Of a DNA stretch of 64,000 nt, positions 39,901 through 42,900 are shown piece by piece. The DNA comes from Escherichia coli O157:H7 (GTDB taxonomy: Bacteria; Pseudomonadota; Gammaproteobacteria; Enterobacterales; Enterobacteriaceae). Every line of letters starts with the position of its first letter. Within the stretch, counting starts at the first letter, position 1. A program made the position numbers. The stretch is taken from assembly GCF_013167455.1 (NCBI RefSeq), contig NZ_CP038328.1; one strand, given 5' to 3'.

Positions 39901-42900
39901 GCCACCGGTATTCGGGTACGCGATTATCCCATCACTCTGGATAAGCTGCTCGATAAGCTGCCGGATGTGGTTTAAGGAGGAACAATGTCATACCCGCTTT
40001 TTGATAAAGACGAACACTGGCATAAGCCAGAGCAGGCGTTTCTCACCGATGACCACCGGACCATTCTGCGCTTCGCCGTAGAGGCGCTAATGTCCGGTAA
40101 AGGAGCGGTGCTGGTGACGCTGGTGGAGATACGCGGCGGCGCGGCGCGCCCGCTCGGGGCGCAGATGGTGGTGCGCGAAGATGGTCGTTACTGCGGTTTT
40201 GTCTCTGGCGGCTGCGTGGAGGCCGCTGCCGCTTTTGAAGCGCTGGAGATGATGGGCTCAGGCTGCGATCGCGAAATTCGCTATGGCGAAGGTTCGCCGT
40301 GGTTTGACATCGTTCTGCCCTGCGGCGGTGGGATCACGCTGACGCTCCATAAACTACGCTCGGCACAGCCTCTGCTCGCCGTGCTGAACCGCCTGGAACA
40401 GAGAAAACCGGCGGGGCTGCGCTACGATCCGCAAGCACAATCGTTGGTGTGCCTGCCCACGCAAACCCGAACGGGCTGGAATCTCAATGGCTTTGAGGTG
40501 GGGTTCAGGCCATGCGTCAGGCTGATGATTTACGGACGTTCTCTTGAGGCGCAGGCAACCGCGAGTCTTGCAGCAGCCACAGGCTATGACAGCCATATCT
40601 TCGATCTTTTTCCGGCCTCAGCCAGCGCTCAGATCGATACCGATACGGCGGTCATTTTGCTGTGCCATGATCTCAACCGGGAGCTGCCAGTGTTGCAGGC
40701 CGCGCGAGAAGCAAAACCCTTTTATCTCGGCGCATTGGGCAGCTATCGAACCCACACGTTACGTCTGCAAAAGCTCCACGAGCTGGGATGGTCCAGGGAG
40801 GAGACAGCGCAAATCCGGGCACCCGTCGGGATATTCCCCAAAGCCCGGAATGCGCATACACTGGCCCTCTCCGTGCTGGCAGAAGTCGCCTCTGTACGTC
40901 TCCATCAGGAGGAGGATTCATGCCTGCCCCCGTCGTCCTGATCCTTGCGGCCGGGCGTGGAAAGCGCTTTCTCACCTCCGGGGGAAATACCATAAATTAA
41001 GAGAAAAATTTGCAGTAGCCGTTTTAGAAAATCACCTAAATCGTTTAAAAGAGCGCCCTACCCATAGTGGTTGCTCATCGCCTTGTGTAACTTTTTCAGC
41101 AACGCGCGCCCTCGCCGGACTAAAGCGCACCGGCCTTCTGGCGTGCTGTAACAAAGGTCAGTACGCCCGCGCAAAGGAGCAGCACACTACTCATGGCAAA
41201 CGTACTCTGCCAGCCAAGGCGGTCAAACACGATGCCTCCTGCCGTTGATCCAAGGGCGATTGAGAGCTGAATCACCGCGACCATGAGCCCGCCTCCGGCT
41301 TCGGCGTTGTCAGGCAACGTACGCGCAATCCATGTCCACCATCCGGTTGGCGCGGCGGTGGCCAGCATGCCCCAGAGTCCTAACAGCAGCGAGACCATCC
41401 AGACGTGATGCCCGGTAAGCATCAGACCGATGGCAATGACGGCCATCAGTCCGGGTATGGCCATCAGCGTGGGGTAGAATTTTCTGTTGAGAAATATCGA
41501 AACAACCAGCGTGCCAATAAAACCGGCCACGCCGATAATCAGCAAAATCAACGACAAGCCTAAGGAATTAACCCGTGTCACCGACTCCAGAAATGGGCGC
41601 ACATAGGTGAATAGCGCAAACTGCCCCATGAAAAACAGGCCACAAGCTATCATGCCGACCACAACCATGCGGCGGCTAAATAAGCGGAATACCGCGCCAC
41701 ATGACGTGTGGCTTTTATTCGCATCCATGCTGGGCAGACTAATGCACTGCCAGATAAAGGCGACAACCGCCATGGGCACCAAGCACAAGAAAGCGCCTCG
41801 CCATCCGACCGTAGCCCCCAGATAGCTTCCCAGCGGCGCGGCCACGACCGTCGCCAGCGCATTACCGGCGTTGAAAATCGCCAGCGCACGCGTGACCTGA
41901 TGCTGCGGCACCAGACGAATCGCCGTTGCCGCTGACATCGACCAGAATCCGCCAATGGCCACACCAATCATCGCACGACCGACCATATACATCAGATAAC
42001 TGGTAGCCAGCGCAATAATAAGCCCCGATACGGCCATCAGAACCGTCATCCCCAGCAGCAGGAACTTACGATTCATCTTTCCAGCTAGCGTTGAAAGCGT
42101 CAGGCTGGTCAGAACCGCCAGCGCACCGGAGATAGCAATCCCCCGCCCTGCCAGCCCCTCCGTCACGCCCAGGTCACGGGCAATCGGCGTGAGCAGGCTG
42201 ACGGGCATAAATTCAGAAGCAATCAGCACAAACACGCACAGGGTCATGGCAAAAATACCGCCCCAGTATGCGTGCTGATGATGAGGTGATGGTGTTTGGC
42301 TTAGTGTCGACATAGTGAAATTTCACAAAGATCAGGATAAAAGCCACCGGCCATAGACCGGTGGCTTTGCATCAATTCAGGGGAGGTTTTATTTCAGTTT
42401 GGTCTGGAAAAATTGTTCGAACTTCGCGAAAGGTATTTTTCCGGCCACGTTATCGTACAGGTCCACGTGATTTGCCCCTGGTACCACCACCAACTCTTTG
42501 TCTTTACTGCCAACCGCCTTGTAAGCATCTTCAGCAAAATAGCGTGAATGTGCTTTCTCACCGGTCACAATCAGCGTCGGAATGGTGATTTCACTGGCGT
42601 AGCTCAACAGCGGCATATTCATAAATAACAGCGGCATCGTTGCCGTCCACGCCCCGGTAGAGTTAACGGAACGTTCGTGGAAGCCGCGCGGCATGCGATA
42701 GTAGTCAAAGAACTCTTTCAGTACCGGATGAGGATTTGCCGGCAGCGTTTCTGGCAGAATGCGCTCGCCCGCACTGACCTTGCCGTTGCTATCGACATTA
42801 ATATCATGACCACCGTGAGCGAACGTTCCGCTCTGCGCATCCTTCCAGCGCTGTTCATTCAAATATTGCAGAACAGCACGACGGTCGGCGGTAGAATAAC

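Follow-up and report, generated by a model that had tools for sequence, protein, structure and literature searches.

The question raised by this locus is what a very short reading frame is doing at the end of the pao operon. In the 64,000-nucleotide stretch of the Escherichia coli O157:H7 genome analyzed here (hereafter the window), a strong ribosome-binding site and an ATG lie at the 3' end of paoD and open a frame of only 26 codons, which begins like a nucleotidyltransferase and then stops. We examined where this frame came from, how it was cut short, what has happened to it since and whether it might still do anything.

A truncated reading frame at the end of paoD

The paoABCD genes occupy 36138-40941 on the plus strand of the window. 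The last intact one, paoD (39985-40941, plus), codes for an XdhC-family molybdenum cofactor (Moco) insertion chaperone, as placed by the list of open reading frames and by the RefSeq annotation of an identical O157 record; in that annotation no feature is recorded between paoD and the next gene, which encodes an MFS transporter. Read directly from the sequence, the short frame, which we term the stub, runs on the plus strand from an ATG at 40920 to a TAA at 40998-41000 and is translated as MPAPVVLILAAGRGKRFLTSGGNTIN followed by the stop. Its AGGAGG ribosome-binding site, AGGAGGAGGA (40907-40916, plus), lies within the last paoD codons, 4 nt upstream of the ATG, and the stub overlaps the 3' end of paoD by 22 nt. 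After its end there is a gap of 119 nt before the MFS transporter gene (41120-42247), which is on the minus strand. The arrangement thus agrees with a preliminary description of this DNA, which had noted from the sequence alone the strong ribosome-binding site and ATG, the 26-codon frame containing LILAAGRGKRF and an MFS transporter on the opposite strand beyond it. The segment 40400-41700 is 100% identical in strains TR01 and Vac_07.1.

The stub carries the glycine-rich motif (L/I)xAAGxGxR(F/M) in the form LILAAGRGKRF, which can be aligned column for column with intact pao-linked proteins of other genomes and with the IITAAGLSSRM of E. coli MocA. A Pfam scan with the 26-residue peptide by itself detected no PF12804 (NTP_transf_3) match; a LonC_helical match (E=0.034) was discarded as spurious, the peptide being too short to inform. 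As the stub is too short for a Pfam match, its assignment rests on positional homology to intact neighbors and not on the motif alone. On the strength of that homology, we consider it very probable (about 0.92) that the stub is the remnant of a pao-linked nucleotidyltransferase gene. It is an ordinary, so far unannotated remnant of a known enzyme family, in which approximately 157 of 184 codons are gone, the length of the residual frame depends on the strain and, in O157, the frame is shifted.

Intact pao-linked nucleotidyltransferases in other Enterobacteriaceae

A scan for relatives of PaoD, with one genome per species, recovered 80 loci, 28 of them enterobacterial. An uninterrupted frame of 180-190 amino acids begins at or just before the paoD stop codon in 26 of these 28, the sole exceptions being the two Erwinia loci, in which no such frame follows paoD. 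The genera with the intact gene include Pluralibacter, Enterobacter, Leclercia, Franconibacter, Siccibacter, Silvania, Cedecea, Dryocola, Kosakonia, Citrobacter, Atlantibacter and Pseudocitrobacter. A short overlap between paoD and the downstream gene is also seen in intact loci, for example in the metagenome-assembled genome (MAG) L090, where paoD spans 8066-9022 and the nucleotidyltransferase gene 9001-9555. The encoded proteins begin M..PVVLILAAGRGERFL(A/T)SGG.THKLDALL; the closest ones in a large protein collection start with MPAPVVLILAAGRGERFLTSGGSTHKL, and the stub is 85-88% identical to their N-termini.

The intact proteins are recognized by the Pfam model for MobA-like NTP transferases (PF12804), a domain of about 160 positions, with E-values of about 1e-26 and scores of 86-92 bits, where the cut-off is 27. 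Among NCBIfam families they fit TIGR03310 best (MocA_YgfJ, molybdenum cofactor cytidylyltransferase), although they reach only 82-85 bits for it, the equivalog cut-off being 186, and they match MobA models weakly (E of 2e-4 to 8e-3). Their best relatives of solved structure are the mycobacterial MobA/MocA-related proteins 2WE9 and 2WEE. Judged by these scores, the intact pao-linked proteins are a clade apart from MocA and not MocA orthologues. The earlier suggestion of an ancestral mocA-like gene linked to pao is therefore well founded, given the intact homologues after paoD in 26 of 28 enterobacterial loci. Because their scores fall below the MocA equivalog cut-off and their identity to E. 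coli MocA is only 21%, we infer cytidylyltransferase activity (CTP-specific transfer of CMP to Mo-MPT, giving molybdopterin cytosine dinucleotide, MCD) for these proteins and do not assign it outright.

At the DNA level the window can be aligned collinearly with four loci: a Pluralibacter MAG (L003; window 35943-40999, 91.4% identity), a Salmonella contig (L089; 40142-40999, 92.9%) and two further MAGs (L090, 36013-40999, 88.9%; L091, 36917-40999, 88.7%). The homology ends at window position 40999 in all four. In three of them (L003, L089 and L090) the 88-93% identity extends unbroken past paoD to cover 80 nt at the start of the intact gene. Stub positions 40920-40999 correspond by homology to the 5' end of the intact nucleotidyltransferase genes; the stub region compared with the start of an intact gene gives 88% identity over 117 nt (E=6e-36). 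When an intact pao-linked protein was searched by tblastn against the whole 64-kb window, the stub was the single site recovered (24 amino acids, 83% identity, E=1.7e-7). No 3' remnant of the gene was found in the window, with nothing better than E=0.19, and among 5,426 complete E. coli genomes and the plasmid records there was not one in which the intact gene extended beyond its initial 77-81 nt.

The old breakpoint: deletion or replacement

All homology to the intact loci, as seen in the four alignments, ends at 40999/41000, in agreement with the earlier proposal that the MocA/MobA-like stub marks a rearrangement breakpoint. The junction reads ACC(C)ATAAATTA up to the break and AGAG after it, and is common to every pao-bearing E. 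coli sequence examined. As the junction is shared in this way and no longer copy of the gene was found, the truncation must be older than the diversification of these strains.

Beyond the breakpoint lies an AT-rich orphan spacer of 94 bp (41000-41093), which is conserved across the E. coli that share the arrangement and is followed by a 3.6-kb cassette (41094-44691) comprising the MFS transporter gene, an alpha/beta hydrolase gene (42389-43447, minus) and a LysR regulator gene (43693-44595, plus). The cassette boundaries (41094/41123 and 44680/44691) were derived from two loci of other Enterobacterales (L099 and L100), in which it is approximately 91% identical at the DNA level and stands in unrelated genomic contexts, not beside pao. 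Outside O157, the MFS protein has its closest relatives either in E. coli variants with the same stub (contig L105) or in cassettes in unrelated contexts, and no linked intact nucleotidyltransferase gene lies beside them. Short-word blastn of the spacer against all the loci retrieved yielded nothing beyond chance matches of 14-15 nt. By eye, the spacer seemed to resemble the 3' end of an Abhydrolase_6 gene located ahead of the MFS gene on the Salmonella contig (L089), an idea abandoned for want of tblastn support. Between 40700 and 41400 there was no Rfam family, terminator or promoter and no unusual fold, the folding z-score of the spacer being -0.99. There is also no sharp GC step at the breakpoint (about 60% GC in the pao genes, 52-61% in the cassette), and composition therefore does not separate the possible mechanisms.

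The preliminary description attributed the truncation to insertion of the downstream block. The truncation itself stands, but simple insertion does not: such an event would have left the 3' 157 codons beyond the block, and as these are absent both there and elsewhere in the window, plain insertion is excluded in favor of deletion or replacement. The ICE-like Salmonella enterica contig (L089) helps to weigh these two. Besides genes for TraI, a UvrD-like helicase and an integrase, it contains a 3' portion of paoD followed by an intact 184-aa gene; 7.2 kb downstream of the latter, the MFS and hydrolase genes recur with order and orientation unchanged, at 82.9% DNA identity to window 41132-43414. 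The intervening 7.2 kb encodes a DLH-type hydrolase, a two-component system, a cupin, a CMD protein, a flavodoxin and an Abhydrolase_6 protein, and elsewhere, too, the intact gene is followed by parts of this set of about 7 kb. This arrangement suggests deletion, in that the order and orientation seen in E. coli would be directly explained by the loss of 7.2 kb from such a locus.

The alternative is that the LysR-hydrolase-MFS block was inserted or recombined into the intact pao-linked gene, arriving with the event that truncated it. In its favor, the block is a discrete cassette with copies away from pao, these unlinked copies (91%) are closer to the E. coli version than is the Salmonella copy linked to an intact gene (83%), and the whole region sits in the thrW integration hotspot. 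Against it, besides the missing 3' codons and the Salmonella gene order, stand the 94 bp of orphan DNA between the stub and the cassette boundary and a junction at which neither repeats nor the ends of mobile elements could be recognized. We consider such a replacement less likely than deletion, though by a modest margin. By either route, codon 28 onward of the nucleotidyltransferase gene was removed before the pao-bearing E. coli diversified, leaving the 94-bp spacer and bringing about the present juxtaposition of cassette and stub.

Later decay in O157 and K-12

The stub has since followed different courses in different lineages. In further E. coli whose downstream genes are arranged as in the window (strains 7/2, CB7453, CFSAN061763 and HET6, and contig L105) the residues T-H-K-L are encoded by ACCCATAAATTA, as in the intact genes. 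The window instead has ACCATAAATTAA, the result of a 1-bp deletion of the O157/O55:H7 lineage at about 40989-40991 (plus strand; CCC to CC, or ACCCAT to ACCAT), located by alignment with four other E. coli strains and the Pluralibacter MAG, which yields I-N-stop. The ancestral frame is accordingly retained in stub codons 1-24 only, the last two codons and the stop being products of the frameshift. Exact copies of the O157-type 80-mer are carried by 316 genomes, namely O157:H7, O55:H7 and a few others. In the other strains listed the frame continues into junk, reaching a stop at 35 or 49 codons.

A different fate is seen in K-12-like E. coli. A blastn comparison of a K-12-like genome (L002) with the window shows that an interval of about 6.13 kb (40992-47124) is missing there, with the microhomology CATAA at the junction, and that similarity resumes (L002 7593-8074 against window 47125-47605) inside a second LysR regulator gene, LysR2 (46564-47463, plus). 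Similarity to the window stops at about 40995 in approximately 2,690 of 3,598 pao-bearing genomes, and the MFS arrangement is kept in 912. The K-12-type junction is AATACC-CATAA-GTGT, and CATAA is found in both parental sequences if the left one still had the CCC form; the microhomology-mediated deletion thus arose in a genome without the O157 frameshift. The 6.13-kb loss is thus a later, second deletion, mediated by microhomology, and accounts for the breakpoint at about 40992-40996 that distinguishes strains from one another.

The product of this event is yagP (b0282), a K-12 pseudogene annotated as a LysR-family C-terminal fragment. Its start codon and first 24 codons are as in the stub, and its translation of 136 amino acids consists of the 24 stub residues fused in frame to LysR2 residues 188-299, the latter making up its C-terminal 112 residues. 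RefSeq annotates the LysR part alone, and the stub explains the odd start of this pseudogene. O157, unlike K-12, retains the whole LysR2 gene and the genes in between. The preliminary description had allowed that the same arrangement with a known function in K-12 would count against its reading; what K-12 has is the stub joined to a LysR fragment as a pseudogene for which no function is known.

The wider context is that of an integration site. The whole block is absent from E. coli phylogroups such as B2 and F, in which an integrase remnant and the tRNA-Thr gene thrW come after yagU at a distance of no more than about 600 bp; the left boundary of the block in the window is at 35881/35882. The 3' end of thrW is represented by a 47-nt copy at 60474-60520 and a degenerate copy at 47537-47605, which flank a P4-like satellite prophage, and on contig L105 thrW directly adjoins the LysR2 remnant. 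These observations indicate that the segment from pao to LysR2 (35882-47605) is an old island cargo at the thrW hotspot, worn down by several independent deletions. The decay was stepwise, with an old truncation followed either by a 1-bp frameshift or by the 6.1-kb microhomology deletion.

Does the stub retain a function?

Every E. coli examined retains the strong ribosome-binding site and the ATG, and there is hardly any variation in codons 1-14; selection for a small ORF is, in principle, one possible cause of such conservation. Several forms of this proposal can be conceived: the stub might yield a micropeptide; its translation, as a coupling ORF, might tune paoD termination, PaoD synthesis or the stability and decay of the pao mRNA; or the chimeric YagP, a 136-aa ORF generated by an in-frame fusion, might be made along with PaoABCD in K-12-like strains and act as a regulatory or dominant-negative protein. 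However, the ribosome-binding site, the ATG and the first seven codons overlap paoD, and their persistence is explained by their position inside or beside the paoD coding sequence. Past the paoD stop the constraint is not evident, with 8 of 51 alignment columns variable over 50 nt among seven E. coli sequences. Within the stub, residues 4 and 5 vary, K15E, R16C and T19A replacements occur, and one lineage has a frameshift. Neither the product length nor its sequence is conserved across strains: the tails beyond codons 24-28 depend on the lineage, and the frame comprises 26 codons in O157, 35 or 49 in others and 136 in K-12. Nucleotide binding is beyond an isolated 24-residue segment of a Rossmann-like fold, and with only 24 residues of a fold of about 185 the stub cannot be an enzyme. 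We therefore regard a functional small ORF, whether as modulator of PaoD and its mRNA or as YagP chimera, as quite improbable; the stub may merely be translated by coupling, into a strain-specific junk product.

As to its composition, the YagP chimera joins 24 residues of a nucleotide-binding loop to the effector-binding subdomain of a LysR protein.

Finally, that the stub is a chance ORF whose glycine-rich motif happens to resemble nucleotidyltransferase N-termini, a reading to which the lack of a significant Pfam NTP_transf_3 match of the lone peptide might lend color, is refuted by the 88-93% collinear DNA identity to intact genes at an identical position relative to paoD and by the tblastn match within the window.

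Functional implications and comparison with known systems

More likely than an activity of the stub itself is that its intact relatives constitute an uncharacterized clade of Moco nucleotidyltransferases dedicated to PaoABC ("PaoE"), distinct from MocA. PaoABC contains MCD, which MocA makes and hands to PaoD (PMC3909100), and paoABCD has been described as a four-gene operon with paoD as its last gene (PMC3909100, PMC2997495). In light of the intact loci, the textbook four-gene paoABCD of E. coli is not a complete operon but a truncated version of a five-gene cluster with its own putative Moco nucleotidyltransferase, in which the lost gene was the fifth, translationally coupled member. From the published roles of MCD, MocA and PaoD, together with the existence of XdhC-MocA pairs elsewhere, the enzyme encoded by this fifth gene would be expected to make the MCD that PaoD inserts into PaoC, its loss in E. 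coli being tolerated as MocA covers for it. Most likely it was this redundancy with MocA that allowed the pao-linked gene to be lost. E. coli PaoABC relies instead on the unlinked and distantly related MocA (ygfJ), and the lost gene would explain why its maturation depends on a protein encoded elsewhere.

Queries of the searchable literature for yagP and for paoD with MocA brought up no account of the stub, a fifth pao gene or the origin of yagP as a chimera. The value of these observations lies in annotation and in the history of the locus, and they entail no new mechanism; they also bring to light the uncharacterized clade of pao-linked nucleotidyltransferases in other Enterobacteriaceae.

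Three known systems offer points of comparison. E. coli MocA (YgfJ), the CTP:molybdopterin cytidylyltransferase, belongs, like the intact pao-linked proteins, to the superfamily PF12804 and shares with them the N-terminal motif (I/L)xAAGxxxR(M/F), but is only 21% identical over 115 amino acids to the pao-linked protein; moreover, its gene is located in the xdh/ygf cluster, unlinked to pao, whereas the window holds just about 27 codons of the pao-linked gene. MobA, the GTP:molybdopterin guanylyltransferase, has the fold family and the glycine-rich N-terminal motif in common with the intact homologues, but their matches to MobA models are far weaker than those to MocA/PucB-type models, and nothing points to guanylyltransferase specificity. 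The closest parallel in gene organization is provided by the xdhC-mocA pairs known elsewhere, namely pucA-pucB of B. subtilis, xdhC-mocA of Arthrobacter pAO1 and the pair of Oligotropha carboxidovorans (PMC2997495). In these, as in the intact pairs of paoD and its nucleotidyltransferase gene, a gene for an XdhC-family chaperone is followed by a MocA-like gene; E. coli differs from them in that the second member of the pair has been cut down to a stub.

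The yagP pseudogene of K-12

Comparison with the K-12-like locus shows that yagP, a K-12 pseudogene with an open reading frame of 136 aa, is a chimera of the nucleotidyltransferase stub, the 5' remnant of the MobA/MocA-like gene that overlaps the end of paoD, and the C-terminus of a LysR regulator. Codons 1-24 of yagP correspond to the stub and the remaining 112 residues to the C-terminal end of the LysR regulator, which O157 retains whole. In window coordinates the stub-derived part spans 40920-40991 and the LysR-derived part 47125-47463, together equivalent to positions 7521-7931 of the K-12-like locus. 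Their in-frame fusion resulted from the deletion of 6.13 kb at a CATAA microhomology. The RefSeq annotation of yagP covers the LysR part only.

The paoD gene itself varies among E. coli strains. Just 5' of the ribosome-binding site of the stub (window about 40900-40912) there is a 3-nt length polymorphism which alters the C-terminal residues of PaoD, the gene being 957 nt long in O157 and K-12 as against 954 nt in strains 7/2, CFSAN061763 and HET6. In E. coli O39:NM F8704-2 an IS66-family element, ISEc23, is inserted at a site equivalent to about window 40580 and interrupts paoD, which is annotated there as two pseudogene fragments. A contig recorded as Chryseobacterium sp. 18061 also has a paoD of enterobacterial type, with 66% identity to the E. 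coli PaoD, and behind it an intact NTP transferase gene. It is closely parallel to the contig of Citrobacter sp. 18056, which the same study deposited, and its Chryseobacterium label is probably due to mislabelling or contamination.

The LysR-hydrolase-MFS cassette

The LysR, alpha/beta hydrolase and MFS transporter genes form a discrete 3.6-kb cassette (window 41094-44691), which recurs elsewhere in enterobacteria, in unrelated surroundings, with DNA that is ~91% identical (comparison loci L099 and L100). Diverged copies of the cassette, with MFS proteins of 63-66% amino acid identity, adjoin paoD in Xanthomonadales, and in Pseudoxanthomonas, paoD and the structural genes of pao are immediately preceded by the LysR gene, which has the same orientation. 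These arrangements hint that cassette and pao are linked in function or regulation.

A probable island at the thrW hotspot

The cassette is separated from the SDR gene by a stretch of low GC content (35-40%; window 44600-45800), with an annotated ykgR fragment lacking its N-terminus (44826-44894) and a hypothetical gene of 92 aa (45298-45576); this stretch is likely to be another junction or scar in the island. In a variant E. coli contig with the same stub (GCA_903981095.1, positions 6658-7660) the 3' end of the second LysR regulator gene (window 47605-47233) directly follows thrW, past which the sequence skips to window 45181; the part between these two contains short segments that match 23053-23168 and 26302-26453. 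This is a further independent deletion or rearrangement within the same island.

About one in four complete E. coli genomes, those of ST131, O2:H1, O4:H5 and ST648 among them, lack the entire block from pao to the second LysR gene (window 35882-47605); in these, yagU and thrW are ~600 bp apart with an integrase remnant in between. The pao genes have a GC content of ~60%, and the block resembles old cargo of an island at the thrW hotspot. Distant from pao, a separate second stretch of 599 bp (window 17715-18313) is shared at 84% identity with a Pluralibacter MAG contig (10322-10920).

No complete tRNA gene is present within the 64-kb window, which contains a degenerate copy (47537-47605) and a 47-nt exact copy (60474-60520) of the 3' end of the tRNA-Thr gene thrW. 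These flank a P4-like satellite prophage encoding a primase-helicase and Icd-like, Psu and Ogr/Delta proteins, its integrase being split by IS1203. In K-12, the CP4-6 integrase intF adjoins the same thrW repeat.
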